From a bacterium (GTDB lineage: Bacteria; Patescibacteriota; Microgenomatia; Daviesbacterales; UBA10151): 26,703 nucleotides of DNA. Shown piece after piece: positions 264 to 22,475 of the stretch; position 1 is the first letter of the stretch, and every line of letters starts with the position of its first letter. The stretch lies in NCBI GenBank assembly GCA_021786105.1, contig JAJYNW010000008.1, forward strand, positions 1-26,703, written 5' to 3'. Below the pieces are notes generated by a model, which was given only the letters and a program-made list of their open reading frames with translations, was not told where the DNA came from and did no database searches. Position numbers and translations under genes: made by a program.

Positions 264-851
264 TTAATTAGTAAATTTAAAAGTGGAAATTATATCTGGA
301 TTCGGAGAGGGAAAATTAGAAAGTTTCTTTTCATTTAATAAATCAGGATGCCTATAACTTATCTGATAACCCGCCCCATTATGTAAAACAAACATAACTA
401 TACTAGAACCGCCGGCCTGCTTACCACCTCCGTCAGAAGATTTAACAGCTTGATCACCATTAAAGGTAATATTAGTTAAATCAAATTGTGTAGATCTAAA
501 AGTATTTGTATATGACGCTATAGAATTTAACACGGTTGGTTCAATTTGGAAAAAATCTGAGTTATAAATTGATGAACAATTACTGCAATGTACATTAACT
601 CCATTATTACGGTCATGGTAAACATTCCAGTCTGACGGATATTTAAATGAAACATTTTGATCAGTATATGTTTTCCAATTGGCAACATCTGCAGAACCGG
701 AGGATTCATTTTTAGAAACCGGAGAAGGAGTTGCTTGAATTTGCCGAGACAATGAAACTGGCTTAATTTGTTTTTGATAAATTACATATCCAGCAATTGC
801 TACAGCAATTAAAATTACTACTAAAAGTGGCGCTAGACCTCTCTGATGCAT
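264..851 (-). CDS. Prepilin-like-signal, PsbP-like surface protein (family member 1)
   Basis: QRG|LAPLL hydrophobic N-terminus, Ser/Pro linker, ANWKTYT..VSFKYPSDW, C-terminal IISTFKFTN. Confidence 0.85.
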   Translation of the reverse strand: MHQRGLAPLLVVILIAVAIAGYVIYQKQIKPVSLSRQIQATPSPVSKNESSGSADVANWKTYTDQNVSFKYPSDWNVYHDRNNGVNVHCSNCSSIYNSDFFQIEPTVLNSIASYTNTFRSTQFDLTNITFNGDQAVKSSDGGGKQAGGSSIVMFVLHNGAGYQISYRHPDLLNEKKLSNFPSPNPDIISTFKFTN

Positions 852-857
852 ATTTTC

Positions 858-879
858 AGCATATCATAAATGATATAAT
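858..879. promoter_or_regulatory. Back-to-back extended -10 promoters around an inverted repeat (possible TA operator)
   Basis: Minus: TGaTATGCT, 6 nt, ATG(851). Plus: TGaTATAAT, 6 nt, ATG(886). Palindrome atatcat-aa-atgatat at 861-876. Confidence 0.7.
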
Positions 880-885
880 ACTGTC

Positions 886-1140
886 ATGAAAACAAGAATT
901 GTCAGAAATCCCAAAATTTTGGCCGGCAAACCTGTTATTGCCGGGACTCGAATTCCGGTAGCCCTAATTTTAAATCTGTTAGCTCATGGTCAAACTATTG
1001 GGGAAATCGTGGGCGATTATCCGGATTTAACTGCCGCTGACGTCAAAGCGGCGGTAGAATATGCCCAACATACAGTAGAGAAAACCTATTCTCCTGCTAC
1101 CTCTACTTTACATGAAATTTCTCATAGACGAAGACATTAG
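886..1140 (+). CDS. DUF433-family antitoxin (VapB45-like)
   Basis: NPKILAGKPVIAGTRIPV...EIVGDYPDLT..DVKAAVEYA is the DUF433 signature; overlaps the downstream PIN gene. Confidence 0.92.
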   Translation: MKTRIVRNPKILAGKPVIAGTRIPVALILNLLAHGQTIGEIVGDYPDLTAADVKAAVEYAQHTVEKTYSPATSTLHEISHRRRH

Positions 1141-1501
1141 CCCTAAACTGGCTGGCTTTTTGCATCGGTTAGGACACTCAGCTATTCATATCAGAGACAT
1201 TAAAATTAGTTTAGCGGATGATCAAATTCTCGAATTATCAGTCACGCAAGAATCTATTGTGATAACCGAAGATAAGGATTTTGGTGAACTGGTTTTTAAA
1301 AATACACAATCTGCCAAAGGCGTGATTTTATTGCGATTGGAGGATCAAACAGTACAAAACACTAAAAGAGCGATTAATTGGCTTTTATCAAATTATTCAT
1401 CTAATAGGATCCAAAATCATTTTGTAGTCGTCACAGAAAAATCAGGAAAAATTGCGGCAAGAACAAACCGCTTAAAAAAGCTTGCCAGAAGCATCAATTA
1501 G
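1112..1501 (+). CDS. DUF5615 PIN-like toxin (VapC45-like)
   Basis: MKFLIDEDIS...DDQIL...VITEDKDFGELVF...GVILLRL motifs; paired with DUF433. Confidence 0.92.
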   Translation: MKFLIDEDISPKLAGFLHRLGHSAIHIRDIKISLADDQILELSVTQESIVITEDKDFGELVFKNTQSAKGVILLRLEDQTVQNTKRAINWLLSNYSSNRIQNHFVVVTEKSGKIAARTNRLKKLARSIN

Positions 1502-2120
1502 TGAATTTAAAGGTGGAAAGAATTTGGTCAACCATGTTTATTTTTGCAGATGAAGTAGCGCTGATTTGCAGTGTTCCATTGTCAAGAAGGCTTACCCAAT
1601 AGGATACTTCATTTAATTTATTGCCTCGTTGATCAATAAAATTAATTTTGGCTCCAGGTCGTCCGTCAATATTTAAATCTGCGATCTTTTGGACAGAAAG
1701 AGACTGTGATAACTTTTGTTTCGTACCAATTGGCGCTGTCACCGGCATATCTATTTGATTTGGTGGGTTATACGAGATATCAATTAGATCATATTTTAAG
1801 CTTGGCGAATCTATCCCGTTTTTAATATCCAACTTTTGATCACTAATATAGACATATCTGTTGTCCCCAAGTGTTTGAATATACCAATTTTCTGGATAAT
1901 TAAATTTATATTTATAAGTTTTATTTGTATAAGTTTTCCAATTGGCAGTTTCAGCAGAACTGGAAGATTCATTTTGAGAAACTGGAGATGGGGAGGATTG
2001 AGTTGACTGAGGAACAGGAACAAGCTTAAATTGTTTTTGGTAAATCAAATACCCGCCAACAGCTATCAAAGTTACCAATACCACTATTAATATTGGTGCC
2101 AATCCTTTTTGTCTATTCAT
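1494..2120 (-). CDS. Prepilin-like-signal, PsbP-like surface protein (family member 2)
   Basis: QKG|LAPIL hydrophobic segment, S/P/T linker, ETANWKTYTNKTYKYKFNYPENW, NIDGRPG, DQILSTFKFTN. Confidence 0.88.
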   Translation of the reverse strand: MNRQKGLAPILIVVLVTLIAVGGYLIYQKQFKLVPVPQSTQSSPSPVSQNESSSSAETANWKTYTNKTYKYKFNYPENWYIQTLGDNRYVYISDQKLDIKNGIDSPSLKYDLIDISYNPPNQIDMPVTAPIGTKQKLSQSLSVQKIADLNIDGRPGAKINFIDQRGNKLNEVSYWVSLLDNGTLQISATSSAKINMVDQILSTFKFTN

Positions 2121-2165
2121 TATCTTTAATATATCACTTTGTCTTTTTATTCTGCAATTGACACC

Positions 2166-2283
2166 AAGGGCGTTAAAAAATCGCAGGATTTGCGACTCAG
2201 GGGAACCGGAAACTGACTACCACGACAGTGGAGGAATTTCCGAGGGGAACAGTCCCCGAGGAGCAAAGACAAGATTTTAGCCC
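2166..2283. repeat. Structured ~116-nt repeated element (MITE-like or ncRNA candidate), longer copy
   Basis: 2166-2217 matches 9993-10044 at 50/52 nt. Nested stems: gggcgttaaaa/ttttagccc, tcgca/tgcga, ctcagggga/tccccgag, cggaaa/tttccg, ccac/gtgg. Confidence 0.7.
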
Positions 2284-2288
2284 GACTA

Positions 2289-2687
2289 TCACTTGCAGGA
2301 GTTTTGAACACTTTTGCGACCAAAAGTGTTGTTAAAGAAATATTCTCTGGCTTCTTTTTCATCTTTTTTCATTTGCTTGATTAAATCTTTTGCTGAGGCA
2401 AATTTTTGATTGCCTCGGATTTTTTTTAAAAGTTTAATAGAAATCCATTTACCGTAAATATTTTTGTCAAAATTCAAAACATAGGTTTCGGCCAAGAATT
2501 TTTTTTTATCAAAAGTTTTAGCCGGACCAATAAAAGTGAGTGACGGATATTGTTTATTTCCAATTTTAGTTTGAGAAACATAAATTCCCTCGGGAATATT
2601 TTTGGTTAAATTTATATTAGCAGTAGGGAAACCCAACCTTCTGCCTCTTTGATTATGCTTCCTTACCTTCCCCCAACATTTGTACAT
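2289..2687 (-). CDS. Stand-alone riboflavin kinase (RibF C-terminal domain only)
   Basis: RGRRLGFPTANI, GIY, AETYVLNFDKNIYG, KIRGNQKF..LIKQMKKD; no FAD-synthetase domain. Confidence 0.9.
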   Translation of the reverse strand: MYKCWGKVRKHNQRGRRLGFPTANINLTKNIPEGIYVSQTKIGNKQYPSLTFIGPAKTFDKKKFLAETYVLNFDKNIYGKWISIKLLKKIRGNQKFASAKDLIKQMKKDEKEAREYFFNNTFGRKSVQNSCK

Positions 2688-2688
2688 A

Positions 2689-3645
2689 TTATGGATGATT
2701 GGCTACGTTCCGGTTATGCTCATCCAAGGTTTTGGCATAATAGGAATTTCCTTTTGAATCATGATAGTAATAAAGATAAGGGGTAGAAGAATCAGCCTCA
2801 GCCACTGCTTTCAAAGATGACAATCCCGGGTTAGAAATTGGAGCAGGCGGCAAACCGGCATGAAGATAAGTATTGTATGGTGAATCTATTTTTAGATCAT
2901 CCAAAGTCAAACCCCTTTTCCACCAGCTCTTTTCTCCTTTTTGGTAACCCAAAGCATACTGAACTGTCGCATCAGCATTTAACGCCATACCGATATTAAA
3001 TCTTTTTAAAAGGATTGAGGCCACCATTCTTCTGACATTATCCGAGCGGGCCTCCCGCTCCACAATCGAAGCCAGAATCACCCCCTCTGCCTCGGTTAAA
3101 CCTTTGGCTTTGATTTTTGAGCGTAAATCATCAGTCAAACGGGTATCAAAAGTTTTTTCCAAAGTTTCGGTAATATATCCGGCGGTTGCCTCTTTAGGAA
3201 AAAGATAAGTATCAGGAAACATATAGCCTTCCTTAGCATTTTTCAAAAATTGGCTTTTATCTATTCCCAACTGCTGATTTAACTTTTCCGCCATTTCCTC
3301 CACCCGCCAGCCTTCTATCAAAGTCACCCACGAATCTTCGCTACCGGACTGAAGTTTGCTTATCAGATCCGGAACGGACATGGAAGAAGAAAGCTTGTAT
3401 GAACCGGCTTGAATCTTATCGGCCAGGTTGTTTTGTTTAACGTAAATTTTAAAAGCTAATTCTGATTTGATTAATCCACTGCTTTTCAGCTTTTTGGCAA
3501 TTTCTGACACTCCGGCTCCCTTATTTATCACAAAAACTTGAGTAGTTGTATCGGCGGATACCGGTGCCAACTGACTATCCCACCAGCCTTTAGCCAAAAA
3601 GAACAGCAAAATTAAGATAACAATTAGGGCTAAAATTTTTCTCAT
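2689..3645 (-). CDS. mltG: Endolytic murein transglycosylase MltG
   Basis: N-terminal TM segment, VTLIEGW, EGYMFPDTY, ASIVERE (catalytic Glu), DSPYNTY..GLPPAPISNPG. Confidence 0.96.
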   Translation of the reverse strand: MRKILALIVILILLFFLAKGWWDSQLAPVSADTTTQVFVINKGAGVSEIAKKLKSSGLIKSELAFKIYVKQNNLADKIQAGSYKLSSSMSVPDLISKLQSGSEDSWVTLIEGWRVEEMAEKLNQQLGIDKSQFLKNAKEGYMFPDTYLFPKEATAGYITETLEKTFDTRLTDDLRSKIKAKGLTEAEGVILASIVEREARSDNVRRMVASILLKRFNIGMALNADATVQYALGYQKGEKSWWKRGLTLDDLKIDSPYNTYLHAGLPPAPISNPGLSSLKAVAEADSSTPYLYYYHDSKGNSYYAKTLDEHNRNVANHP

Positions 3646-3656
3646 AATTCCTACCT

Positions 3657-3742
3657 TGTCATTGCGAGCGATTAGCGAAGCAATCTTCCACGGAATAGGT
3701 AGATTGCCACGTCACTCACTTCGTTCGCTCCTCGCAACGACA
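3657..3742. repeat. Complete GTCATTGCGAG-type palindromic element overlapping the ruvX 3' end
   Basis: Arms tgtcattgcgag (3657-3668) and ctcgcaacgaca (3731-3742); inner stem gcaatct/agattgc. Confidence 0.85.
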
Positions 3743-4122
3743 GACCGAGAATCCAAATACTCCTGTAAAATTCCTGCGGCAGAATAGGCATCTTCTTCGC
3801 GACGACGCCCTTTTCGCCGTACACCTTGCTCAATCATCACCGTCAAAGCTTTCTTGCTGGACAAAGTCTCATCGCTAGTTTCCACCTCAAATCCTTTTTT
3901 TCTTAAGGCACTAACAAATCCGGTAACATTTTGACCCATTTTACCTTCCGGCAAACCAACCACGATTTTGTCGAAATTATTATCTTCAATTATTCTTGAA
4001 ATTTTTTCCACCGCATCGGAGAAACCTTTAACCTCCAACACTTGCCAAGGAGAAGCTAGCTCGCCTTCTGAAATAGCCAGGCCTATTTTCCTCAATCCAA
4101 AATCAACGCCTAAATATTTCAC
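3712..4122 (-). CDS. ruvX: YqgF/RuvX pre-16S rRNA nuclease / putative Holliday junction resolvase
   Basis: LGVDFGLRKIGLAIS, IVVGLP, DETLSS, DAYSAAGILQEYLD. Confidence 0.95.
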   Translation of the reverse strand: MKYLGVDFGLRKIGLAISEGELASPWQVLEVKGFSDAVEKISRIIEDNNFDKIVVGLPEGKMGQNVTGFVSALRKKGFEVETSDETLSSKKALTVMIEQGVRRKGRRREEDAYSAAGILQEYLDSRSVVARSERSE

Positions 4123-4131
4123 TCCAAAAGG

Positions 4132-4773
4132 TTATATCATTTTTCCTAAAACAACAAGCCTTTTAAAATTTAGCCCAGGGGGCACACAAGTCATTAGGGA
4201 AATATATCTGCCTTGAGTATCCGGCGCGACTAGCACTGATAAATTAGATGGGTCAACTATTTTAAATTCGGTAACTTCGTACACAAATTTTGATCCCGGG
4301 GTTTCAACGGTAATCTGATCCCCTTTTTTCAAATCGGGCAGTTTGGAAAAAGGCGCGCTTTTAATAGCAAAAAGCGGACTTAAGGCAGAATGACCTGAGA
4401 TAAACACGTTACCTTTTTCTCCAGGCAAGGCAGATCCAGGCAAATGGGCAAAACCTTTTGATAAATCATTGGTATCCACCAAAACATCCTCCTTATCAAT
4501 TTTGAGCTTGGGAATAGAAAGATTAAACTTATCATAGTTAGGGTGAGACTCCCGCAGTTTTGAAGAAACAAAAGCTGGGAAGTTATCTTTATTTTGGACA
4601 GAAATTCCCAAAACCTGCTCGTTTGATCTGGTCGGACTAATCAGAGCTTGGCTTTGATAACTTTGCCCGAGTGCCCAAAACTGGAATGAAATTATCGGCA
4701 AAACCACCTGCATTAGGATAAAAGTTCCGATTGATAAAAAACCGACGGATATCAACTTACCCGGAGCGATCAT
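4132..4773 (-). CDS. Sortase family protein
   Basis: N-terminal TM segment; PGEKGNVFISGH, LKKGDQI, ISLMTCVP..KRLVV provide the His/Cys/Arg triad. Confidence 0.93.
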   Translation of the reverse strand: MIAPGKLISVGFLSIGTFILMQVVLPIISFQFWALGQSYQSQALISPTRSNEQVLGISVQNKDNFPAFVSSKLRESHPNYDKFNLSIPKLKIDKEDVLVDTNDLSKGFAHLPGSALPGEKGNVFISGHSALSPLFAIKSAPFSKLPDLKKGDQITVETPGSKFVYEVTEFKIVDPSNLSVLVAPDTQGRYISLMTCVPPGLNFKRLVVLGKMI

Positions 4774-7103
4774 TTCAGCCCTACCTCGATTTTAATATTC
4801 TTGGAAAGCAGGGGCAGGCGTTGAAGTATTGCCGGCAGCTGCGGGGTAATATCAATCTCTGAGCCTAAAATATTATCCACACTTTTGATAATATCTGCCG
4901 CCTGGGCCAAAGTTTTGAACTTAATCTGGTTTCTGATTTTGTCCGTATCAATCTTCGGCATTAACTTAGCCTTGAATTTTGCCAAGAATACCAACTTGCC
5001 GTCTTTTTCCAATTTTGAAACATCGGCCTGAGTTTCCGTATCAGAAAGATCCAACCGGAAACCATCCGGCACTTGTGTGGTAACCAATTTAGATACAATT
5101 GTCTTCAAGTCCGCATCATCAAACGCTGTTCCTTTATAAGTCACAGTCATATTTAAGGAAAACTCGCTCGCCTGATCATTAATATTTTTGCTATAACTTT
5201 TCTTGACGGTACTTTCTGATAAAGCTTCTTCTAAAATCTTTTTAGTCGGATATTTCTCCTGTATCTTTTGCTGAGCTTGCTGCCGTAAATTGGAGGATAG
5301 CTTGGCCAGCAATCTTTGCTGATCTTCGGACGAAACCACCGTCACGTCTTTAGAAGTGCCGCCGGAAAAATTGCCTTCGGTTTTCGCTACCACTTCTGAT
5401 TTAGAATAATTACCCACTTTAAGTTCTACAGAAGAAGGAATATTACCATCCGCTCCAATGATTGCGGCGGTTGCTCCTATTGCGTCCGACTGTGATGGCG
5501 GAGCAGCAGCGCTTGCTGACTTCGAAGCCACCTCTACACCCTTATCAAGCTTAAATTGCACACCACTATCATTTGTTAATGTTTGACCAGCTTTTAGAAC
5601 TAGTTGCTGATCGGTTGCATTATATATTCTAACCATCCCTTTTGCCGGATCACCGATTTGCCTTTTACCGGTGGCGGTGTCTTTGGCTGAACCGGATACA
5701 TCAACATTAACTATCTGGCCGGGAATTATTTTCTTCTCTTCATCAACAGTTTTTTGATTAGGATCAGCTATCACTTGGGCATCTTTTTCCAAAATCTTTG
5801 GTTCGACAAAAATCTTAACATCAGCCTTCAGCAAGAATAAATAAGCCACTACCGCCAGAACCATTGCGCCAACAACTCCAAATAATATAATCAATACTGA
5901 AGCATTCCTGGGAATAAACCTCTTTAAGTTAAACTTTCTCTTGTGTTCTCCTTTTTGAGGTTGAGGCGGAGTAATTTCTCGTTCAAAATCATCAATTTCA
6001 ATCGAATCTTCTTCCGGAATTGCTAATTCTCTTTCTTCGCTCAAACTATAAGCGGGCGCTTCTGCTGATTCACCAACCTCTTTATCTGCCACATCTCCCA
6101 CCATAAACCCAAAGTTATCACCCGCAAGGTGAGGTTTCTCGAAAACCTTCTTTTTCTCTTCAACTTCTTCTTCGGTCTCTTCTTCTGACTCAGTATCTTC
6201 CTCATCCTCCAACTTTTCAACCTTTTGTTCTTCTGATTTCAAATCTTCTGATAAATCTTGCTCCGCTGATTCTTTTTGATCTTCCGTCTTCTCCGGACTC
6301 CCCTCTTCCAAAATATCCAGTCGTTCTGCAGATTTTTTAATTGGTTGATCGACAAAAACCACATTACCATTTATTTCTGACCCTCCTGCCAAACACACAC
6401 TCTTAATTTCCAGCTCTTCACCTAAAACTTCGATCTTTGGCACATGCAGGAAAGACAGTTTCGACATCCAAGAAAAAGAGGCTAGCTGGCTTTTCAATCC
6501 CACTGCCATCTCTCCATAGATTAAAATCTTAGAAGGCAAAGTTTCTACATCAGTAAAAGTTAATAAGGCTTTTTCTATATCTGCACCAGAAGTCTCTCCT
6601 CGCGTCACCACCTTTACTCCATCCAATTTACCAGCCCGCACTACCGTCACTGTTAAATGCTTTTCTTCAAAACCTACCAAAATCGCCGTAGTCGGAACAC
6701 CTTCTTGTTTTTCCAAAAAATGCACCAAAGCATTACTGGTAGAAACATAGGCCATTGGAGTCAATTCCAACTCTTTGACTAAATGGCGCAAAACCCTTAA
6801 GTATTCTTCTTTCAAATTATCATCAACAATCCAAGAATTGGGAACACCGAATAGAATTTTTTGTGGCTCAACTTCTTTTAAACCCAATACCTGATCTAAT
6901 AATTTGTCAGTTACGGATACAATTTCGTCATTTGAAGAATAGCTTTGAGAAGCAATATCTAAAACTTTTAAATCTTTGCTGCCAACCGTCCACAAAGCAG
7001 CAGTTAATTTTTCCGCGCCGATGTTAACGGCGAAAAAGTAATCTGGTTGTTCTTCCTTCTTTCCAAACGGCAAAGAGGCAGTCAGTTTGTTTAAAAAACT
7101 CAT
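4770..7103 (-). CDS. Bitopic membrane protein: N-terminal actin/FtsA-like region, acidic linker, TM helix, C-terminal baseplate-J-like region
   Basis: 777-aa ORF with a single TM helix (SVLIILFGVV...AYLFLL) and an E/D-rich linker. C-terminal ATG...AKGMVRIYN...GADGNI...FSGG...VVS..D pattern resembles CPR proteins annotated baseplate J/gp47 (recall, not searched). Confidence 0.7.
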   Translation of the reverse strand: MSFLNKLTASLPFGKKEEQPDYFFAVNIGAEKLTAALWTVGSKDLKVLDIASQSYSSNDEIVSVTDKLLDQVLGLKEVEPQKILFGVPNSWIVDDNLKEEYLRVLRHLVKELELTPMAYVSTSNALVHFLEKQEGVPTTAILVGFEEKHLTVTVVRAGKLDGVKVVTRGETSGADIEKALLTFTDVETLPSKILIYGEMAVGLKSQLASFSWMSKLSFLHVPKIEVLGEELEIKSVCLAGGSEINGNVVFVDQPIKKSAERLDILEEGSPEKTEDQKESAEQDLSEDLKSEEQKVEKLEDEEDTESEEETEEEVEEKKKVFEKPHLAGDNFGFMVGDVADKEVGESAEAPAYSLSEERELAIPEEDSIEIDDFEREITPPQPQKGEHKRKFNLKRFIPRNASVLIILFGVVGAMVLAVVAYLFLLKADVKIFVEPKILEKDAQVIADPNQKTVDEEKKIIPGQIVNVDVSGSAKDTATGKRQIGDPAKGMVRIYNATDQQLVLKAGQTLTNDSGVQFKLDKGVEVASKSASAAAPPSQSDAIGATAAIIGADGNIPSSVELKVGNYSKSEVVAKTEGNFSGGTSKDVTVVSSEDQQRLLAKLSSNLRQQAQQKIQEKYPTKKILEEALSESTVKKSYSKNINDQASEFSLNMTVTYKGTAFDDADLKTIVSKLVTTQVPDGFRLDLSDTETQADVSKLEKDGKLVFLAKFKAKLMPKIDTDKIRNQIKFKTLAQAADIIKSVDNILGSEIDITPQLPAILQRLPLLSKNIKIEVGLK

Positions 7104-7155
7104 AAAAATTTTGCCTGGAGGTGGCCTGAAATTATCTTAACATAAAATATGCGAG

Positions 7156-9111: not shown

Positions 9112-9130
9112 GAAGCTATTTTAACATTAA

Positions 9131-9955
9131 TTACTGTTTGGACGGAGAATTAAATTTGATTGATGAAATAATTGCTTTTTCTAAAGGCACAACTAAACTA
9201 TTATTTTGATTAAGACTCTCATCTATATAAAGCAAATCTTGATTATTCAGCGGAACAAAAACTCTTTTCCCTACAATCAGTGCTTTTTTATTATTTATCT
9301 CTATTTCTTGCATCTTATCAAAACTCCAAGTTACATGATCTGCATAAACAGGACCACTAACACCATCAGTGCCAGGCCTAACTTTGTAAGTACCAGGCAT
9401 TAATTCTATCGATTTCGGATCTTTAGATAGTAACGCCTGAAGCCAAGCTACGCCAGTTTTGTAACTAGGATGCCTAAAAGGACTTTGCTGAAAATCCTCT
9501 GCTTTAACAATCACAAATCCTACGAAATAATTTATATAATTATGTATCTGAGCTGAAGCAATATACGCATCATGAATATCATCAGAAACTTTACATTGCC
9601 ATTCGGGAGGACACTTAAATAAAAAGCCAGAATGCGTATCAATTTCTTTCCAATTGCTTATATCAATAGGGTCCTTAATTTCTTCAATATAAATTTTCCC
9701 CTCGCCACTCTCACATTGCTTAGGATAACTTTCAACAACTTTACTACCCACAGATTTAATACAATCATTAAAAGTAGCAATAAAAGGAATTTCTGCTGGA
9801 ATAGGTGAGGACTGAGAACTAGAAATAGATTTAAACTGTTTTTGGTAAATTAAATATCCACCAATTATTGCTACAGCTATCAAAATAATTATTAAAATTG
9901 GTGCCAGGCCTTTTTGTTTATTTTTCGCAGAAAAACAGTCCCACGGTTTATTCAC
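9131..9955 (-). CDS. Prepilin-like-signal surface protein with a small Cys module plus a PsbP-like module (family member 3); start re-assigned to GTG 9955
   Basis: QKG|LAPIL segment; TFNDC...VESYPKQC module; SNWKE..FLFKCPPEW; IISSIKF. TGtTATACT lies 7 nt before the GTG; the upstream ORF extension reads through a repeat. Confidence 0.82.
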   Translation of the reverse strand: MNKPWDCFSAKNKQKGLAPILIIILIAVAIIGGYLIYQKQFKSISSSQSSPIPAEIPFIATFNDCIKSVGSKVVESYPKQCESGEGKIYIEEIKDPIDISNWKEIDTHSGFLFKCPPEWQCKVSDDIHDAYIASAQIHNYINYFVGFVIVKAEDFQQSPFRHPSYKTGVAWLQALLSKDPKSIELMPGTYKVRPGTDGVSGPVYADHVTWSFDKMQEIEINNKKALIVGKRVFVPLNNQDLLYIDESLNQNNSLVVPLEKAIISSIKFNSPSKQ

Positions 9956-9992
9956 TAAATTTAGTATAACATTCTTTTTTTGCTTAGAAACA

Positions 9993-10044
9993 AAGGGCGT
10001 TAAAAAATCGCAGGATTTGCGACTCAGGGGAACCACAAACTGAC
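9993..10044. repeat. Partial copy of the 2166-2283 element
   Basis: 42 bp identical to 2166-2207; 50/52 overall. Confidence 0.85.
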
Positions 10045-10085
10045 CGAACGATTAAAGAACTTTTTTATAAGAAAATCTTGCAAGC

Positions 10086-10376
10086 TCACAAGGTTCGCTT
10101 GTAGAATCTTTTGGGTTTAGGTCTTATCATTTTTTGTATCATACTGACAGCTCCGGATACAGCTTGGACTTCTGCATTAGTTACCAAATTGCTGGCCGCT
10201 GCCACTGGTTTTTCCACATCAGAAGCAATATTTTCCCCGGTTTGCAAAATATGGTTAAACTTGTCCAAGCCCTTTTTTAAATCCCGTAAAATAAAAAATA
10301 CTTGGATGCCGGTAATCCCGAGAAAAATTGATAAAAGTAAAATTAAAAAGATAAGGGCAATCTGCAAAAAATCCAT
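10086..10376 (-). CDS. Small membrane-anchored protein (DUF948-like)
   Basis: N-terminal TM segment, helical middle, basic C-terminus; TGaTATATT 8 nt before the ATG. Confidence 0.75.
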   Translation of the reverse strand: MDFLQIALIFLILLLSIFLGITGIQVFFILRDLKKGLDKFNHILQTGENIASDVEKPVAAASNLVTNAEVQAVSGAVSMIQKMIRPKPKRFYKRTL

Positions 10377-10399
10377 GGATTCTTAATATATCACACCTG

Positions 10400-12301: not shown

Positions 12302-12353
12302 TAAATATTCCCATTATGTTCACGGTCGTGAATACTTTGGGACAGTTAAAAAC

Positions 12354-12563: not shown

Positions 12564-12595
12564 TTGCGGACATTATACATCTACTTTACGTTCTA

Positions 12596-14704: not shown

Positions 14705-14750
14705 AACTTTATTGTAGCCTACTCCCTATTATACCACACTATAGGATTGA

Positions 14751-16445
14751 TTATACCTCCACCACCACGGGCAGAATTAGCGGTCTCCTTCCGGTAGCCT
14801 GATATAAGAATTTCTCAAGCGATCCTTCAATGACTTTTCTGACAAAACGCCAATCACTTCCCTTGTGAATATGTTTTTGCAGACTATCCCTAACCACTCT
14901 TTTAGCATCCTGCAAAACATCTTTGGCCATCTCTTCAAAAACAAATCCCCGCGAAATAATGTCCGCCTCAGACACCGGCTGACCGGTATGCTGGTCTACT
15001 GATATTACCACAACCACCACCCCTTCCTCACTCATTTTTTGCCTATCCCGCAATATCACATGCCCGACATCACCAATCCCCAATCCGTCTACATAAACAT
15101 TCTGCACATCCACCTTGCCGTCTAATTTAATACTGCCGCCCTTCACCTCCACCATATCTCCATCTTCCGCCTCTATCACCTGTTTTTTATCATAACCCAT
15201 ACCTTCAACCATTTTGGCAAAAGCCACCATGTGCCGGAAAGTGCCGCCAATCGGCAGCAGGAATTGAGGTTTAATTAAGTTCACCATTAACCGAAGCTCT
15301 TCCAAAGCCGCGTGCCCGGACACATGCAAATCAGAAGTCACGGCCGAATAATAAACATTTATCCCAAGTCTCGATAAAGAATCAATCAACGCGTATTGCG
15401 CCGATTCCGTAGAAGGAATCGGATCGGCGGAAAAAATCACGCTGTCTCCTTCCCGAAGCTTCACCTGTTTATGCTCCTCGTTAGCTGCCCTCGACAATGA
15501 CGAATCGGATTGGCCCTGGGCGCCGGCAATCAAAACTAATACTTTGTTGGGAGCAAATGAGGACAGGGCATCAGAGGCGATTATAATACCGGGGGGAACT
15601 TTTAAATATCCCAAGTCCCTGGCCACCTGGAAATTATTTTCAAAAGACCGGCCCACAACAGCCACCTTTCTGCCTAATTTATACGCCACGTTAATAGCCT
15701 GCTGCATCCGAGAAACGTTTGAAGAAGTGGTGGTAATCAAAACTTTACCAGACGTTTCTGAGGCGGCTTTTTCAAAAGTATCCTCAATTGATTTTTCTGA
15801 TTTATTAAAACCCGGCTTATCCACCCTTAAACAGTCAATTAATAAAAGTAGCACCCCTTCATTCCCTAACTCAGCCGCCTTCCCCACATCCGTCACTTGA
15901 CCAGAAACCGGCGTCCAATCAATCTTAAAATCGGCCTGGTGAATAATTAAACCTTGGGGTGTTCTGATAACTACACCGGTGGAATCAGGCACTGAGTGGG
16001 AAACCTGATAAAAAGATACCCGGAAATCCCCTAACTCCAATCTTTGGTCAATTTTAACCTCCATAATTTTATTTTTCGGTAAATTATGCTCAGTAAATTT
16101 GGCCCGGATAAAACCGGCAGTTAATTTTTGGGTATAAATCGGCGCTTGCAGCTCCGGCCAAATATAGGGCAAACCGCCAATGTGATCTTCGTGCCCATGA
16201 GTAATAATTATTCCCCTAATCTTATCTTTCTTATCCCGAAGATACGTAATATCCGGAATTACCAAATCCACTCCCGGCATCGCTTCATCCGGAAACCCTA
16301 CTCCGCAGTCAATAATAATGATGTCCTTATCAGTCTCGTAGACATACATGTTTTTGGTCACATCACCCACACCGCCTAAAGGAATAATCCTGAGCGGCTG
16401 ATTGCTATTTTGCGTATCTAAAAACTTTGGTCTAAATGTTTTCAT
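14751..16445 (-). CDS. rnj: Ribonuclease J
   Basis: IPLGGVG, IDCG, THGHEDHIGG, HSVPD, HVSGHA, RRPLILPVV; AAGGAG Shine-Dalgarno upstream. Confidence 0.97.
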   Translation of the reverse strand: MKTFRPKFLDTQNSNQPLRIIPLGGVGDVTKNMYVYETDKDIIIIDCGVGFPDEAMPGVDLVIPDITYLRDKKDKIRGIIITHGHEDHIGGLPYIWPELQAPIYTQKLTAGFIRAKFTEHNLPKNKIMEVKIDQRLELGDFRVSFYQVSHSVPDSTGVVIRTPQGLIIHQADFKIDWTPVSGQVTDVGKAAELGNEGVLLLLIDCLRVDKPGFNKSEKSIEDTFEKAASETSGKVLITTTSSNVSRMQQAINVAYKLGRKVAVVGRSFENNFQVARDLGYLKVPPGIIIASDALSSFAPNKVLVLIAGAQGQSDSSLSRAANEEHKQVKLREGDSVIFSADPIPSTESAQYALIDSLSRLGINVYYSAVTSDLHVSGHAALEELRLMVNLIKPQFLLPIGGTFRHMVAFAKMVEGMGYDKKQVIEAEDGDMVEVKGGSIKLDGKVDVQNVYVDGLGIGDVGHVILRDRQKMSEEGVVVVVISVDQHTGQPVSEADIISRGFVFEEMAKDVLQDAKRVVRDSLQKHIHKGSDWRFVRKVIEGSLEKFLYQATGRRPLILPVVVEV

Positions 16446-16455
16446 AATCTCCTTC

Positions 16456-16548
16456 TGTCATTCTGAGCGAAACGAATAATCTCTCACAAATGTGAGATTA
16501 TCAGGAATCTTGGCGAGATCCTTCGTCGCTTCACTCCTCAGGATGACA
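16456..16548. repeat. GTCATTCTGAG/CTCAGGATGAC palindromic element supplying the stop codon of the Lon-like gene
   Basis: Arms tgtcattctgag (16456-67) and ctcaggatgaca (16537-48); inner hairpin taatctctcaca-aa-tgtgagatta. Confidence 0.85.
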
Positions 16549-17560
16549 AATACTCACCCAAGTTTTCGCTCGTTATCCTAAATGGACCACTCCCACTCTC
16601 CACCTGCTTTCTGGCTACTTTCCGGCAGATTGCCTGCAGAGAGCGGGACAAAGACCGAGTGCCCGAATCAAAACCTAAAGGCCGCAAAATCTGCGGCCAA
16701 GCTGCATCATCAATAGTTAATCCGTTTTGATTTATCCCGGCCTCACTGATGGCCTTCGGCAGTAAATAATTTTTGCCAATGGCCAACTTCTCCTCATCCG
16801 AGTAAGAAGGCATCACAATCGGCTCCAGCCTATCCAACACAGCAGTGGCAATATTGCCGGTATTGTTAGCCGTTGCTATAAACAACACCTGGGATAAATC
16901 ATAGGGAAAATCCAAATAATGATCTACAAAAGCCTGGTTTTGGGCCGGATCCAACAACTCCACCAACACCCCCATAATATCCACCCGGTGCTCCGCGGCC
17001 ACCCGATCTATTTCATCCAGCAAAATTACCGGGTTAGAAACTTTAGTAGTTTGAATAGCTTTGATAATTTGGCCGGGTTCGGCGTCTACCCGCATCCTGG
17101 AAGTACCACGGATAGTGGCCGGATCGCCCAAACCGCCAAAAGGAATTCGGGCAATTGGCCGGCCTAAAGATTCAGCAATGGCATAAGCCAAAGAGGTTTT
17201 ACCGGTCCCCACCAAACCAATAAAAGCCAAAATTGGCGCATGAAAATCATTTACCTGCCTGGTTTGCTGGTGCAAAATTAACACTGATAAATATTCTAAA
17301 ATCCGGTCTTTCACTGATTGTAAACCATAATGGTTTTTGTCCAAAATTTGTTTGGCCCGGCTTAAATCTAAAATATCCGGGGCAAGTTTGGAAAAAGGCA
17401 AAGACAGGACAAAATGAACATAATTAATCAAACTTTCTATCTCAGTGCCGGAGCCGGTAAATTTCAAAAGATTAAGCAATTTTTCTTCAATTTCTTGAGG
17501 GAGATTGGCTTGGGTAATATTAATTTTTAACTCTTCAACAACGCTGCGGGCAGAATCCAT
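16538..17560 (-). CDS. LonA-type AAA+ ATPase module without N-terminal or protease domain
   Basis: NHYGLQSVKDRILEYL, Walker A GLVGTGKTS, NPVILLDEID, FVDHYLDFPYDLS.VLFIATAN, LDRLE; ends ITSENLGEYL. Start could be TTG 17572 or ATG 17560. Confidence 0.9.
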   Translation of the reverse strand: MDSARSVVEELKINITQANLPQEIEEKLLNLLKFTGSGTEIESLINYVHFVLSLPFSKLAPDILDLSRAKQILDKNHYGLQSVKDRILEYLSVLILHQQTRQVNDFHAPILAFIGLVGTGKTSLAYAIAESLGRPIARIPFGGLGDPATIRGTSRMRVDAEPGQIIKAIQTTKVSNPVILLDEIDRVAAEHRVDIMGVLVELLDPAQNQAFVDHYLDFPYDLSQVLFIATANNTGNIATAVLDRLEPIVMPSYSDEEKLAIGKNYLLPKAISEAGINQNGLTIDDAAWPQILRPLGFDSGTRSLSRSLQAICRKVARKQVESGSGPFRITSENLGEYLSS

Positions 17561-17727
17561 AATTAGTAACAAACCTTAAAATATAATAATCTAGGTTAGT
17601 AATTATATGATTAAACTACAACTATAGTAAATTACATTACAATAAGTGTGTTAGGTTAAATCATATTTATATTGTATATTTTACCTCAAACGCTATAGTT
17701 TCCCAAGAGGATAATTATTAGACAGAT

Positions 17728-18693
17728 TTAAAAGGAGCTTCTTGCTCCTGTACACATGTATTGAGCTTTCGCTGTTTTAGTTTTGACGTCAACAACACAA
17801 GCTAATCCACAATTACCAGCAACCGGTTTCATTGTTAACCACCACGTTTCAGTATAATCATTGCAATAATCATCCTGATCGGTAAAAGTTCCCTCTTTTA
17901 AACAGTCTGATTGCAATGCAATCTGTTTAGCTTGACTTAAAGAAAGTGCCATATTCGTACTTTGACTTTTGCAAGTTTGGTCAGTTTTTGAATTTTGATC
18001 TAAAAATTTAAAGCTGCTCACAAAACGATCAATGATAGGTTGATCTGGATAATCTAGACCAACTATCAATGACACTCCATGTCCAACAATATACAAACCA
18101 GATAAATTAGGAAAATTAGGATTTGAAAGATCTACAATAGTTGCATCAATGTTTGGAATATTTGCTAATCTTGTTTTAGCTGCCACATTATTCATTTGTT
18201 TTACCAAATCCATTGATGTCCGAGCATCTGATTTAAAAATCTTAATATTAAAACCATCGGGAACTCCAGGGATGGGTTTTTTAGGATCGTAATAAGTTGG
18301 GGTTAGGTATATAAAATCAAGTTTATCAATAGCAATCTCTGGTGGCGTACCCCAAATATACCAATTTTTTGGATAATCAAAAGAAAATCCATATTTTGTA
18401 TTTGTATATGTTTTCCAGTTAGCGGCGTCATCTAAAGGCAAAGTTTGTTTTTGTACCTCTGGAGTTAAAGTCTCATTGTTTTCTGTAACTGTAGGTAAAA
18501 GACTTTGTGAAGTTGAAGATGGTTTAGGAGCAGACTGGGAAATCGGAGAAACTGAAACTTGAGGATTCAAACGAACACCAGTCCTATAGGGCGGGTTCTG
18601 AGTCCGAGATAAATAATATACCCCACCAGCTACTGCTACTAAAACCAGTATTCCAACTAACACATACAATACTGCAAAGCCTTTTTGCTTCAT
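17728..18693 (-). CDS. Prepilin-like-signal surface protein, PsbP-like module plus C-terminal Cys-rich module (family member 4)
   Basis: MKQKG|FAV segment, linker, ANWKTYTNTKYGFSFDYPKNW...SSFKFLDQN, then a 6-Cys module (CNDYTETWW...CGLACVV...MCTG). Confidence 0.88.
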   Translation of the reverse strand: MKQKGFAVLYVLVGILVLVAVAGGVYYLSRTQNPPYRTGVRLNPQVSVSPISQSAPKPSSTSQSLLPTVTENNETLTPEVQKQTLPLDDAANWKTYTNTKYGFSFDYPKNWYIWGTPPEIAIDKLDFIYLTPTYYDPKKPIPGVPDGFNIKIFKSDARTSMDLVKQMNNVAAKTRLANIPNIDATIVDLSNPNFPNLSGLYIVGHGVSLIVGLDYPDQPIIDRFVSSFKFLDQNSKTDQTCKSQSTNMALSLSQAKQIALQSDCLKEGTFTDQDDYCNDYTETWWLTMKPVAGNCGLACVVDVKTKTAKAQYMCTGARSSF

Positions 18694-19845
18694 TTAATCA
18701 AATTTAAAGGTGGATACTATTTTGTCAAACATAGACTCGTTGATAGTTGGCGAGGCAGATGGATTCCATGGCAAATGAGTAATAATAATAAAGGAACCAC
18801 CTTTAGGATTAGGGATTATATACTTTGAATAATGCAGTGTCGCAGGTTCACTCCCTCCCAGTGCTCCCCGGTCTTCCTCCACTTTTATCATCTGAATGTT
18901 ATTAATAGTCACATCCTCTTTTTTACTACTTATTGGGCAATCTTCTTTGCAACCTAAAGTGGGATCTTTATCGCTAGAAGAAATATATATTTGTCCACCT
19001 ATTCGCGCTTCATTTAGCCTATCATCATAGTAAAAAGACATTGTAGCGGGGTATTTAATAGAAAAGTTTACTAAATCAGAAGTATATGTTTTCCAATTAG
19101 AAGTACCTACAGTTTGGTTTTGATCTAAAAACCGAAATGTAGAAAGGATTTGCCTAAATAAATCATCTTGATTTTGGGAACTAATAAGAGCCACATCATA
19201 TATTCGACCATTTTCTACAAAGAAAGAAGCAGATAATATTCCTAATCCATCTGGCTTACCTTCAGTGTAAAACATAGCTTTTATTCCTTTTATAGATATT
19301 TCTTCTTTTTTATTGAATATTCTTCCGTACCAATTTTTCGTGGCAGTTGACTCATGGAATTCTTTCCAATCTTCATATGTACGTAACTTTGGATTTTTAG
19401 CTGTTCGTATTTCTAACCTGAAACCTTTTTTTACCCCGACTATATCGCCACCTTCATGTGGATTCTCGTAATTAGGATCAGGAACATAATCAGGTGATGT
19501 TATATAGATGTCTAAACCGTCATCCTCACGATTTACATCAATAGATTGTTTGATAACCCAAGTCTCAGGATATTTAAAAGTATAATTTTTACCAGTATAA
19601 GTTTTCCAATTAGTAATTTCATCTGAAATTAAGGCAGGTTGTACAGAAGAAACTGGGTGTGGAGTTTGAGAAATAACCTGATTTTGAACTTGAGGTTTAA
19701 TAACTTGGGATTTACCAAAATAAACAAGTTTGTTACTGGCGTAATAATATGCTCCACCGGCTACCATTGCTATTACCAGTATCCCAACTAAAACCAGAAT
19801 TGGAGCAAAACCTTTTTGTTTACACTGAGCATAGTCGAAGTACAT
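18694..19845 (-). CDS. Prepilin-like-signal surface protein with two tandem PsbP-like modules (family member 5)
   Basis: QKG|FAPIL segment; NWKTYT...QILSTFRFLDQN...SNWKTYT...KIVSTFKFD. Confidence 0.88.
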   Translation of the reverse strand: MYFDYAQCKQKGFAPILVLVGILVIAMVAGGAYYYASNKLVYFGKSQVIKPQVQNQVISQTPHPVSSVQPALISDEITNWKTYTGKNYTFKYPETWVIKQSIDVNREDDGLDIYITSPDYVPDPNYENPHEGGDIVGVKKGFRLEIRTAKNPKLRTYEDWKEFHESTATKNWYGRIFNKKEEISIKGIKAMFYTEGKPDGLGILSASFFVENGRIYDVALISSQNQDDLFRQILSTFRFLDQNQTVGTSNWKTYTSDLVNFSIKYPATMSFYYDDRLNEARIGGQIYISSSDKDPTLGCKEDCPISSKKEDVTINNIQMIKVEEDRGALGGSEPATLHYSKYIIPNPKGGSFIIITHLPWNPSASPTINESMFDKIVSTFKFD

Positions 19846-19852
19846 TAATTTT

Positions 19853-19886
19853 AGTATAACATCACTAACTCAATTTGAGATATAAT
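19853..19886. promoter_or_regulatory. Divergent -10 boxes between family member 5 and hicB
   Basis: Minus: TGtTATACT, 7 nt, ATG(19845). Plus: TATAAT, 6 nt, ATG(19893). Small palindrome ctcaa-t-ttgag at 19869-19879. Confidence 0.65.
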
Positions 19887-19892
19887 ACAGAT

Positions 19893-20108
19893 ATGAAAAA
19901 GGTTCATTCGGTTGTTTGGAAAGAAAATAAATGGTACGTGGCTAAAGCTCTGGAAGTAGAGGTTGCAAGTCAAGGTTTAAACGAAAAAGAAGCGTTGGCT
20001 AATCTAAAAGAGGCTTTAGAGTTATACTTTGAAGATCAAGCTAAAGTAGAATTGGCACCTGTAAATAAACCTAAGCTCCAAGATTTAGCCATCCAAGTTC
20101 ATGCCTAA
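19893..20108 (+). CDS. hicB: HicB-like antitoxin (short, no DNA-binding domain); start re-assigned to ATG 19893
   Basis: VVWKE.KWYVA...VASQG...EALANLKEALELYFE. Confidence 0.9.
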   Translation: MKKVHSVVWKENKWYVAKALEVEVASQGLNEKEALANLKEALELYFEDQAKVELAPVNKPKLQDLAIQVHA

Positions 20109-20325
20109 ACTTTATTCTGCCAAAACAATCCTGGCAGCATTACAACGAGCAAATTTTGCTATTATTTCCCAAAAAGGCAGCCATATTAAATTGCACAAAA
20201 GAGAAAACAATAAGATTTTAACCGTAATTGTTCCCAATCATAAAGAAATCGCCATTGGAACATTTATGAGCATCTTAAAACAAGCTGATATGACCAGAAA
20301 AGAATTGGAGAAATTTATTAGGTAA
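20101..20325 (+). CDS. hicA: HicA family toxin
   Basis: F.IISQKGSHIKL...VIVPNHKEIAIGT..SILKQA. Confidence 0.93.
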   Translation: MPKLYSAKTILAALQRANFAIISQKGSHIKLHKRENNKILTVIVPNHKEIAIGTFMSILKQADMTRKELEKFIR

Positions 20326-21310
20326 TCACTGGGTAAATTTAAATGTGGAAAGAATTTGGTCAATATATTCTCTGGTTTTCCCTTCAACTTCTGCACCTTC
20401 TCCAGCTAAACCATTCAGTTTAAAGGTATAGATAGACTAAATGGTTCGATACCATCTTCTGTAGCAAGACCAGCTTTGTAAGTACGTTCGATTACAACAT
20501 CCGTTAGTAGCCATTTCGGCCTGGGGTTTGATTTTTCATTAAATTCTTGCATATACACCTTCGTGTTTTCATCTGGAGGATATTTAATACTAAACAAACC
20601 TTGAGGATCTTTATATGTTTTCCAGTTGGCCCCGATTAAATCGGGGTTGGCAGTTTCATTGTTTGAATTTTGATCTAAAAATTTAAAGGTTGAAATGATT
20701 TTACTGTTCAAACTCTCCGGCTTTCTGTTTGAGGTGGTGCGTATTTGAAGATAGTTATTGTCTTTATAAGGCAAAAAGGTATACCGAGTAAAATAAAAAC
20801 CGCTAGCAAATTCATATCCTGATAAACCATTAATAACAACAGGTACAGGTTTTTGAAGAGGTGGATTAGTATTACCATTGAGTTCTTTAGTAACAAATCC
20901 TGCAACGTTTTACCTTCTAGTGACCCAAAATAAAAAGAGATCTCGCCATCAACCCAATTGCCACTCTCAGAAACCAAAGGGTAACTTGGATCAGGCGTTG
21001 GAGTAGGAGTTAACCTGACAGGATCAACTATATCAACAGAACCATAGGAGCTTTAGCGAACAACAAAATTGGGAGGATATCTAAAACTAAAAATTTTATT
21101 TGGGTCGGTATAGGTTTTCCAATTTCTAGTTTCATCTGAGGATGAAGTTGATGATGGTACGGGTTTAGATGCTTGAGAGACAGTCTGATTTTGAATCTTG
21201 GGACTAGAGTTTTTAGTGGTTCCAAAAAAATATGCTCCACCAGCCACCGATACCAATATCACTATCCCAACCAAAATTAAAATTGTCGCAAAGCCTTTTT
21301 GATAAAACAT
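20326..21310 (-). pseudogene. Disrupted two-module member of the prepilin-signal/PsbP-like family (member 6)
   Basis: Starts MFYQKG|FA; in-frame TAA at 21053-55; 1-nt frameshift near 20895-97; second frameshift near 20425-20437; ends DQILSTFKFTQ-TGA at 20326. Confidence 0.85.
20625..20651. repeat. 15-bp palindrome flanked by a 6-bp direct repeat (in-frame micro-insertion)
   Basis: gttggc-cccgatt-a-aatcggg-gttggc; converts ETANWKT to ETANPDLIGANWKT. Confidence 0.8.
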
Positions 21311-21311
21311 A

Positions 21312-22475
21312 TTAGTTACAAGTTAGAGTTAACTGTTCCCCCTCGCCGCTAGCTTGAGAAGTACAACGAATCACTCTTTTGGTATCTCCAGTCATTAAGT
21401 TAAAAGCATAAATTTCAGCTGCTCCAAATCCCCCATCACCACCTCCACATTGATAATAAACTATGTCCGACATTGTCCATTCTAACAGCTTTTGGCAAGC
21501 AAAATAGGGTATTTCCTGATTAGGAATGACGGTAACTTTTTTAATGCTTTGATCGAGCAACACTAATGCAAAATAGACTTTGTTTTCTATCCCGCCCCCA
21601 CCCTTCTCCACTTCATAACTGATTAGATTTGTACCTTGTTTTGTTTCACAATATTGGACATCAGAAACTGTTTCTCCTGGCAGAGTTTGAGCGACCTTTT
21701 TAATTATCTGTATAAGATTAGCATCAAAGAGAAATTCTTGTTTTTTAGTTACTCCGTCATAGTAACTATAAGAATCTCCATTGCGGCTATAAAGAGGCGT
21801 ACATCTCGTATCCACTAGTTCATCTTCATTAATATTCAGTAATTCTGATGGATAATCTTGTGTTGAAAAAAACTTTTCTTGAGTACCAAAATTTCTTTTG
21901 GCGAATCCTGTCTGATCTTTTTCAGGTCCAGTATCTACCTTAAGAGCAGTCAAGGTAATATTTAAGGTAATTTCTGTATTTTTTGAGTTGGCTATATAAC
22001 CAAGTTCATAAGAGCTGCTATCTCCATCTTTAGCACATTCATCACCAAATACAGATGCGCTCCTTGGAGAAGCATACTCTCCAGCTCCGCCGTTGCAGTG
22101 CCAACCCAACTGCTTGGTAACATTTGCATACCATTTGCCGACTTGGTCAAAATCATCATTGGTCACCCAGCTAAATACCTTAGTATCACAAAAATTGAAA
22201 CCTTGTAGTTGTTGTTTCTGACCACAAGTTGTTGCGCTAGTATTAGTAGTTAATTTAGCATTCGGATAAACTGGGAATCCTTTTAATTCAGGTAATTGAC
22301 TGCTGGAAGAAACATTTCTATCGTTAGCTGCTTGCCTAGAATCGGTCGCAACAGGCATGTCAAGAGATTTATTAAATACTTTGGGAATAAAATAATATGC
22401 CCCACCACCTACTGCTGCAATGACTAGTATCCCAATCAAAACCAAGAAAATTGGAGCAAAACCTTTTTGGGCCAT
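21312..22475 (-). CDS. Prepilin-like-signal, Cys-rich surface protein (family member 7, different cargo domains); start re-assigned to ATG 22475
   Basis: MAQKG|FAPIF segment; GFPVYPNA domain; multiple Cys; TGcTATATT 6 nt before the ATG; the longer ORF overlaps the pnp tail. Confidence 0.87.
   Translation of the reverse strand: MAQKGFAPIFLVLIGILVIAAVGGGAYYFIPKVFNKSLDMPVATDSRQAANDRNVSSSSQLPELKGFPVYPNAKLTTNTSATTCGQKQQLQGFNFCDTKVFSWVTNDDFDQVGKWYANVTKQLGWHCNGGAGEYASPRSASVFGDECAKDGDSSSYELGYIANSKNTEITLNITLTALKVDTGPEKDQTGFAKRNFGTQEKFFSTQDYPSELLNINEDELVDTRCTPLYSRNGDSYSYYDGVTKKQEFLFDANLIQIIKKVAQTLPGETVSDVQYCETKQGTNLISYEVEKGGGGIENKVYFALVLLDQSIKKVTVIPNQEIPYFACQKLLEWTMSDIVYYQCGGGDGGFGAAEIYAFNLMTGDTKRVIRCTSQASGEGEQLTLTCN

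Follow-up and report, generated by a model that had tools for sequence, protein, structure and literature searches.

Bacteria of the candidate phyla radiation (CPR) have tiny genomes and live attached to other cells. Here we analyse seven related genes, m1 to m7, carried on a 26,703-nucleotide (nt) stretch of DNA (the window) that is the entire contig C11 (JAJYNW010000008.1) of a 1.04-Mb draft genome in 26 contigs (G000; assembly GCA_021786105.1) from an ultra-small CPR bacterium of the Daviesbacteria type. We conclude that they are probably ordinary members of a large PsbP_2-type (PF18933) family of N-anchored extracytoplasmic proteins of Patescibacteria, a family that is already catalogued, and that the conserved 'anchors' at the edges of their modules are structural. 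A preliminary description of this DNA had seen a seven-member family of surface proteins diversified at constant DNA anchors. The seven genes are real, but five more lie elsewhere in the genome and m6 is a pseudogene. A hidden Markov model (HMM) of the module found 13 pieces of open reading frames (ORFs) genome-wide, seven on the window contig and six elsewhere that amount to the five further genes (one is split). Genome-wide there are nine matches to a strict head motif, of which seven fall in the window. Named homologues of the family come from Daviesbacteria and Curtissbacteria. The seven genes, which occupy three gaps in a housekeeping backbone, are as follows.

264..851, minus strand: m1, head type A (M-H-Q-R-G-L-A-P), stalk and one PsbP-like module, 195 amino acids (aa); PsbP_2 E 0.001, below the cut-off; module HMM 2e-31.
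1494..2120, minus strand: m2, head type A, stalk and one PsbP-like module, 208 aa.
9131..9955, minus strand: m3, head type A, a small two-Cys module and a divergent PsbP-like module; module HMM 3e-37.
17728..18693, minus strand: m4, head type B, stalk, a PsbP-like module, the FKFLDQNS junction (17987-18013) and a Cys-rich C-terminal module.
18694..19845, minus strand: m5, an extended leader, head type B, stalk and two PsbP-like modules joined at FRFLDQNQ (19117-19138).
20326..21310, minus strand: m6, pseudogene of a two-module member, with the junction FKFLDQNS at 20662-20688.
21312..22475, minus strand: m7, head type B and an orphan cargo, 387 aa.

The sequences support proteins built from a head, a stalk and stackable modules. 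All seven begin with x-Q-(K/R)-G-(F/L)-A and a hydrophobic helix of about 22 residues, as the preliminary description had reported, and the additions that it listed are likewise present: the Cys-rich C-terminal module of m4, the second PsbP-like module of m5 and m6, the two-Cys module in front of m3 and the different cargo of m7. Head type A is that of m1-m3 and type B that of the clustered m4-m7. In six members a Ser/Pro/Thr/Gln stalk leads into one or two modules that run from NWK..YP..W to STFKF, with interiors only 20-33% identical (15 pairs among six intact modules). The decay of m6 consists of an in-frame TAA (21053-21055) and frameshifts near 20895-20910 and 20415-20440, and contigs from three runs (X1, X3 and X5) reproduce these lesions with zero differences and zero indels.

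PsbP_2 was the best Pfam family, at E 0.01 or better, in five of the six module-bearing members. We then examined an AlphaFold2 model of m5, the sole module-bearing member with a predicted structure, built from a 20-sequence alignment (mean predicted local distance difference test score, pLDDT, 71.9). It has a helix at residues 14-38 and a disordered stalk (residues 40-67, pLDDT under 50). The first module, a, extends over residues 74/78-240, its ends coinciding exactly with the NWK motif on one side and the F-R-F motif on the other. Its closest neighbour was CyanoP (2xb3; Z 13.4, root-mean-square deviation 2.7 Å over 137 of 155 residues), followed by plant PsbP (Z 10.6-12.6), TplEi (12.2), LpqN (10.6), Tsi3 (10.2), Mog1 (9.8), MTC28 (9.8) and DcrB (9.2), with BT_1490, SciW and Apa also within Z 9.2-12.6. 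Altogether, 40 entries of the PsbP/Mog1 superfamily reached a Z of 9.2 or more, and the next fold class lay at 7 or below. Foldseek agreed, with 13 matches for m5 at E ≤ 1e-3, PsbP first, and a probability of 1.00 for PsbP entries. On this modelled structure the cores are of the PsbP/Mog1 fold, as the preliminary description had proposed from their sequence. In the same model, NWKTYT..F.YP..W corresponds to the first beta-hairpin and F.QILSTFKF to the last helix and strand of the fold.

We then asked whether the motifs at the module edges are kept as DNA or as protein. The nucleotide counts given earlier for these anchors proved exact on recount: 50 of 59 positions between 670-728 and 1933-1991, 21 of 21 in the head region, 27 of 27 at the junction and the variant at 19117-19138. 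At residues identical between members, however, the same codon was used 1.27 times as often as expected from genome codon usage at the N edge (85 versus 66.7, n = 138) and 1.20 times at the C edge (43 versus 35.7, n = 76), against 1.18 times in the module interiors (122 versus 103.3, n = 242). Synonymous sites at the edges are thus as scrambled as those inside the modules, the pattern that the preliminary description had itself associated with constraint on the protein alone, and its wording of constant DNA anchors is too strong.

The same motifs are kept as protein in dozens of homologues from other genomes, which also speaks against their being DNA sites for recombination. Twenty two-module homologues from other assemblies gave the consensus QKGFAPI.., DETANWKTYTN..FSFKYP and F.QILSTFKF.DQNQ...T.NWKTYTN, and the listed ends of 82 modules of other proteins mostly carry both edge motifs. 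Stacking of domains at the FKF-LDQN junction, by contrast, was borne out beyond the window: in other genomes the junction precedes a second PsbP-like module, TIG, FtsX_ECD or a Cys knot, and, judged from these sequences, (L/T)DQN(Q/S) is a generic inter-domain linker of the family. A −1 frameshift site at the junction (TTTAAAT) was considered and rejected on inspection; the heptamer is out of the required frame. In our reading, the module-edge anchors reflect protein-level constraint, and they look conserved as DNA mainly because their residues are conserved and an AT-rich genome uses few codons.

Several results weigh against this interpretation, some of them at the level of DNA. In back-translation simulations (1,000 per usage table), the longest exact match expected between members was 17-19 nt, with a 95th percentile of 22-23, whereas the longest observed were 27, 21, 19 and 18 nt. 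The 27-nt tract at the m4/m6 junction had a P of 0.008-0.019 against the codon-usage simulations and sits between otherwise unrelated cores; the occurrence of two tracts of at least 21 nt, the second common to the heads of m5 and m7 (19798-19818 and 22449-22469), had a P of 0.001-0.027. Heads of m4-m7 share the same codon at 56 of 83 identical residues versus 32.3 expected, a 1.73-fold excess in which the pairs are not independent, compared with 1.16-fold between head types A and B. The stalks of m1 and m2 match at 38 of 45 nt, with eight of ten codons the same. Short-tract conversion, or an ancestry that the 5′ parts have shared recently, would fit these residual signals, and recombination may have taken place near the motifs. 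We read the heads, and perhaps the m4/m6 junction, as carrying a more recent shared DNA history.

Other reservations concern membership of the family and its history. Only m4 (27.8 bits) passes the curated PsbP_2 gathering cut-off of 27; m2 scores 23.6, m1 19.6, the first piece of m6 18.3 and m5 16.3, and neither m3 nor m7 has any PsbP_2 match in the Pfam scan. A tree of 82 modules was star-like, with three of 79 inner branches starred and a median end branch of 1.36 changes per column, so that congruence tests had almost no power. Finally, the localisation, topology and binding of the family proteins are inferred, and their function is read from fold, topology and turnover.

Taken together, the data suggest the following picture for PsbP_2-type proteins held at the membrane. 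A leader of 4-13 residues ending in Q-K-G would be followed by the hydrophobic helix of about 22 residues held in the cytoplasmic membrane, presumably with the N terminus inside and the C terminus outside. The disordered Ser/Pro/Thr/Gln stalk would carry one or two non-enzymatic alpha/beta-sandwich binding domains, to which some members add small Cys-rich domains. The array may have arisen by local duplication and then fast divergence, with occasional swaps of head and cargo through illegitimate or short-homology recombination on an evolutionary time scale, and with decay of m6 and insertion of toxin-antitoxin pairs; such changes would be confined to a small number of sites of gain and loss between housekeeping genes. 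Outside the cell, the domains could bind ligands or envelope components of partner cells, and their turnover may reflect changing partners or enemies.

The head deserves separate treatment. At E ≤ 1e-3, a profile of the seven heads retrieved 927 of 1.84 billion cluster representatives, and in the best 150 of these it lies almost always at the extreme N terminus. Of 141 new head-bearing representatives, 105 carry a PsbP-like module by the module HMM and 43 by Pfam (E ≤ 1e-3); other cargos behind the head are LRR, TIG (two), PepSY, FtsX_ECD, DUF3828 or no known domain. Within our genome, Pfam likewise finds nothing in a head-bearing 373-aa protein on contig C6. The consensus reads Q(-2) K(-1) G F/L A P I L, and comparisons of the head DNA across genes and genomes give 80-83% identity. 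Heads were found in all 19 genomes of the genus (E ≤ 0.01), in five of six genomes of the bacterium's own family and in 15 of 121 of the class (E ≤ 1e-4, G000 included). From its sequence and distribution, the head appears to be a distinct, lineage-restricted signal that travels between cargos. A word-based search with m7 residues 1-40 alone returned the query itself only and is uninformative.

One explanation of this signal is a class III (prepilin-type) sequence lacking Glu5, which the prepilin peptidase PilD would cut after Gly; Phe or Leu would then be the first residue of the mature proteins, to be held or assembled by a type IV pilus-like machinery. In all seven window genes a short basic leader ends in Gly (-1) and the residue at +1 is hydrophobic, and all 11 PsbP-like genes of the genome, chosen by module and hence free of circularity, show (Q/S)-K-G immediately ahead of the helix. 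Of the 141 representatives, 111 have leaders of 4-6 residues, but this set was selected by head and conservation of the head in it is therefore circular; one homologue reads K-G-F-T-L-I-L. The genome encodes a PilD homologue at C13:24011-24427 of G000 and canonical Glu5 pilins. In archaea, moreover, class III signals are described on non-pilin binding proteins, among them the sugar-binding proteins of a proposed 'bindosome' (PMC2910488).

Other features of the head argue the opposite. Glu at +5 occurs in none of the seven window genes and in none of the 141 representatives, which have Leu at this position in 116 cases and Pro at +3 in 125. The seven genes gave no match to N_methyl (PF07963, TIGR02532) or pilin families at E ≤ 1 in Pfam and NCBIfam, and the single homologue with an N_methyl score stays below threshold (19.9 bits versus a cut-off of 21.2). 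The helix leads into a disordered stalk and not into a pilin alpha1-C and globular head, and many whole-protein homologues carry the same modules on plain transmembrane (TM) anchors with long cytoplasmic tails. As PilD is universal in the genus (19 of 19 genomes), its co-occurrence with the head is uninformative. We regard processing of the head as a class III signal as unlikely, and as quite doubtful the broader proposal that a Glu5-less class III sorting signal sends PsbP-like, LRR, TIG, PepSY and orphan cargos along the prepilin peptidase route and moves as a portable 5′ DNA cassette at hot spots. If true, the class III reading would make these proteins a bacterial counterpart of the archaeal bindosome substrates.

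Beyond the shared head, the m7 cargo stands apart. It had two homologues in 5.8 billion clusters, no Pfam family and nothing in a sequence search of the PDB. The model of m7 has a pLDDT of 40.1, with residues ~60-180 as its usable part; structural matches to this part were PA1624 (Z 9.2, the best), PA94 (8.0) and DcrB (7.8), values within the range of chance arrangements, so that the resemblance in fold proves nothing. The model hints that this first domain (~60-180) could be another DcrB/PsbP-like sandwich.

Heads and cargos have been re-assorted between genomes over evolution, a conclusion supported by several sequence comparisons. The two best-supported sister pairs on the module tree, m5a with P0002 (59% identical) and m1 with P0010 (42% identical), carry different head types (Shimodaira-Hasegawa-like approximate likelihood ratio test, SH-aLRT, 91 and 93). 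Across the whole tree, head type changed 11 times versus 10.6 in shuffles and does not cluster, so that the tree speaks to shuffling through these two pairs only. The only close homologue of the m7 cargo (59% identical) carries the extended leader of the m5 type. At the orthologous position, that of the gene next to pnp, 67 of 81 head bases of m7 agree with those of genome G009, and the similarity ends with the head: beyond it, m7 matches its G009 and G017 relatives at 25 of 49 and 27 of 57 positions, whereas these two match each other at 39 of 51.

Gene content at these loci also varies between near relatives. Six genomes of the genus stand closest, with PNPase 88-92% identical; among them, the interval from pnp to the lon-like gene holds no family gene in G003, G006, G014 and G008, one in G017 and two in G009, compared with four here. 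The flanking proteins are 75-86% identical, whereas alignments of family members are local and reach only 23-56%. The gap between alaS and p96, occupied here by m3, contains in G003 a gene for which tblastn detects no relationship with m3; G006 and G008 have nothing at this site. More widely, the modules occur in 29 of 31 related genomes, counting G000, and in 11 of 13 genera; each of these genomes yields 2-17 matches, often clustered. Copy-number turnover and low identity between members give an accessory pattern and not a housekeeping one, and the comparison supports the view that the family loci are hot spots of gain and loss.

This pattern bears on a second explanation, in which the proteins are envelope-biogenesis helpers like DcrB and LpqN that sit beside membrane machines within the wall space and are not outward adhesins. 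The structural neighbours LpqN, MTC28 and DcrB would suit such a role, as would the envelope and division genes nearby (mltG/YceG, ftsK, the gene for a RodZ-like helix-turn-helix (HTH_25) protein and a sortase gene). Presence and absence that differ between close relatives at two sites, the divergence of members relative to their flanks, the range of copy numbers per genome and the decay of one copy all tell against it, and we judge a helper role improbable.

The preliminary description had further proposed that the family forms adhesin- or receptor-like tips, possibly for host attachment or phage evasion, and is diversified by recombination. Such a role is conceivable, and recombination of head and cargo holds over evolutionary time; signs of ongoing shuffling were absent. 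The longest repeat was 183 nt at 72% identity, and no exact match between members exceeded 27 nt. The scanned ORFs of the 26.7-kb contig, a scan that left aside small ORFs overlapping genes on the opposite strand, included no recombinase, invertase or reverse transcriptase; the non-family ORFs scanned among those of at least 80 residues belonged to housekeeping, sortase or toxin-antitoxin families, with four that had no family. Contigs from four runs (X1, X3, X5 and X6), which cannot show rare variants, contained no chimeric joins; one contig spans the whole cluster without a difference, and a single arrangement was seen in three runs. All apparent joints in run contigs had sides of 21-48 nt at 85% likeness and were motif matches from other family genes. 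A search for related loci with m5 among genome contigs found no relative. An actively shuffling repertoire, in which the anchors as homologous-recombination sites swap cores and stack modules for phage or host-attachment variation, could draw on the 27-nt and 21-nt tracts, the head/cargo reassortment, the hot spots with zero to four copies and m6 as a possible silent donor, but with edge motifs kept as protein across many genomes, edge synonymous sites no more alike than interiors and one arrangement in the contigs, we consider it very improbable.

Under the interpretation that we prefer, that of PsbP_2-type proteins with structural anchors, the genes remain embedded in an ordinary backbone. 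This comprises rpsO, pnp, a gene for a lon-like AAA protein, the RNase J gene, ftsK, sua5 and the gene for the RodZ-like HTH_25 protein, together with alaS, the sortase gene, ruvX, mltG/YceG and a flavokinase gene. Further features between the family members are as follows.

886..1501, plus strand: DUF433 (886-1140) and DUF5615/PIN-like (1112-1501), a toxin-antitoxin-like pair between m1 and m2; E 1.9e-24 and 1.6e-24.
2160..2217, minus strand: intergenic repeat copy 1 (hairpin and T run), just upstream of the m2 promoter.
9987..10044, minus strand: intergenic repeat copy 2, upstream of m3.
19893..20325, plus strand: DUF7387 (19893-20108, antitoxin position; E 1e-7) and HicA toxin (20101-20325; HicA_toxin E 9e-16), between m5 and m6.

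The two toxin-antitoxin-like pairs, DUF433 with DUF5615/PIN-like and DUF7387 with HicA, lie on the strand opposite to the family members between which they are wedged, an arrangement that fits the gaps as insertion hot spots. Within the large cluster, a single nucleotide step leads from the stop codon of m5 to the start of m4, and likewise from that of m7 to m6; with this spacing, m5-m4 and m7-m6 look like two two-gene operons, probably co-transcribed. Small Cys-rich add-ons stand in front of or behind PsbP-like modules in m4 (17731-17991) and m3 (9650-9790), for both of which Pfam gives nothing, and also at C19:9700-10700 of G000 (L049) and in a G003 member at L044 (3744-4469). One C-terminal Cys-knot motif recurs in the C19 paralogue, in the homologue P0166 and in the gene that G003 has in place of m3.

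A dispersed intergenic repeat of ~60-110 nt has two copies in the window that are 93% alike over 58 nt; at m2 and m3 it separates the promoter from the end of the gene upstream. Further copies occur in G000 at C22:157-225, where it precedes a non-family gene, and partly at C21:585-631. Rfam at gathering thresholds gave no match anywhere in the window, the repeat included. A terminator cassette in shared use and a small mobile repeat are both possible readings.

An extended -10-like motif, TGnTAYAnT, ends 5-8 nt before the start codons of m2 (7 nt before its ATG), m3 (probably a GTG at 9955, judged from the sequence), m5, m7 and several other genes; the start codons concerned in the window are at 2120, 9955, 19845, 22475, 886, 10376 and 12232. 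Genome-wide the motif occurs 72 times, 51 of them ahead of an ORF of at least 80 residues, a count that has no shuffle control. This placement suggests that leaderless mRNAs may be common in this bacterium. Consensus scans for promoters and terminators gave sites no more numerous than in shuffles, so that our remarks on promoters rest on the motif itself.

The sortase gene (Pfam E 8e-23) lies directly downstream of a gene for a 777-aa protein, the two together occupying 4132-7103 on the minus strand. This protein matches no Pfam family; its middle is acidic and of low complexity, and it contains an internal hydrophobic segment. LPXTG-type tails are absent from all family members, and the substrate of the sortase is therefore not among them. 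The lon-like neighbour (16538-17572, minus strand) has AAA and Lon lid domains, with the protease domain absent from the scan listing, and is two ORFs in G017.

Although the family is already catalogued, a search of the literature available to us found no paper on PF18933, on PsbP-like proteins of Patescibacteria or on the head motif. Two modest results are added: the module-edge 'DNA anchors' find an explanation in conservation of the fold together with codon bias, which cautions against reading a shuffling machine into such arrays; and a lineage-restricted, prepilin-like head is described on several kinds of cargo. This small genome spends at least 12 genes on one family of tethered binding domains that are gained and lost between near relatives, and such investment and turnover make the family a sensible candidate for interactions with partners or phages.

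Cassette-type systems of surface variation include pilE/pilS-style gene conversion and diversity-generating retroelements. Set beside these systems, the array shares clustered paralogues, conserved edges, variable middles and a silent pseudogene copy; it differs in having neither long identical donor and acceptor tracts nor a template/variable repeat pair, no reverse transcriptase or recombinase among the ORFs scanned, and scrambled synonymous sites at the module edges. Type IV prepilins of class III have in common with the head a short basic leader ending in K-G, then Phe or Leu and a hydrophobic helix, in a genome in which PilD is present; the head departs from them in the missing Glu5, the Pro at +3, the lack of an N_methyl match and the lack of a pilin body.

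Structurally, the modules belong with DcrB, LpqN/MTC28/Apa, Tsi3/TplEi and Eag/SciW (Z 9.2-12.2), a superfamily of non-enzymatic binding scaffolds that are mostly extracytoplasmic and tethered to membrane or lipid. Unlike these, the family described here has no lipobox, no type VI secretion system context and no detectable sequence relationship, and its copy number and turnover are far higher. PsbP and CyanoP of photosystem II (PF01789) share the fold at 10-15% sequence identity, whereas in the proteins studied here a TM helix tethers the domain, which is stacked in tandem; as the gene content, as far as read, is not photosynthetic, a photosystem role is not expected. The closest counterpart is PF18933 itself, with the same anchor, linker and PsbP-like domain ending in ..STFKF, a member (m4) that passes the cut-off and a profile whose alignment to many head-bearing homologues starts at the anchor. 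Here, most copies fall below that curated cut-off, the head has its own consensus, Q-K-G-(F/L)-A-P-I-L, Cys-rich modules are appended, and the same head also carries an orphan cargo.

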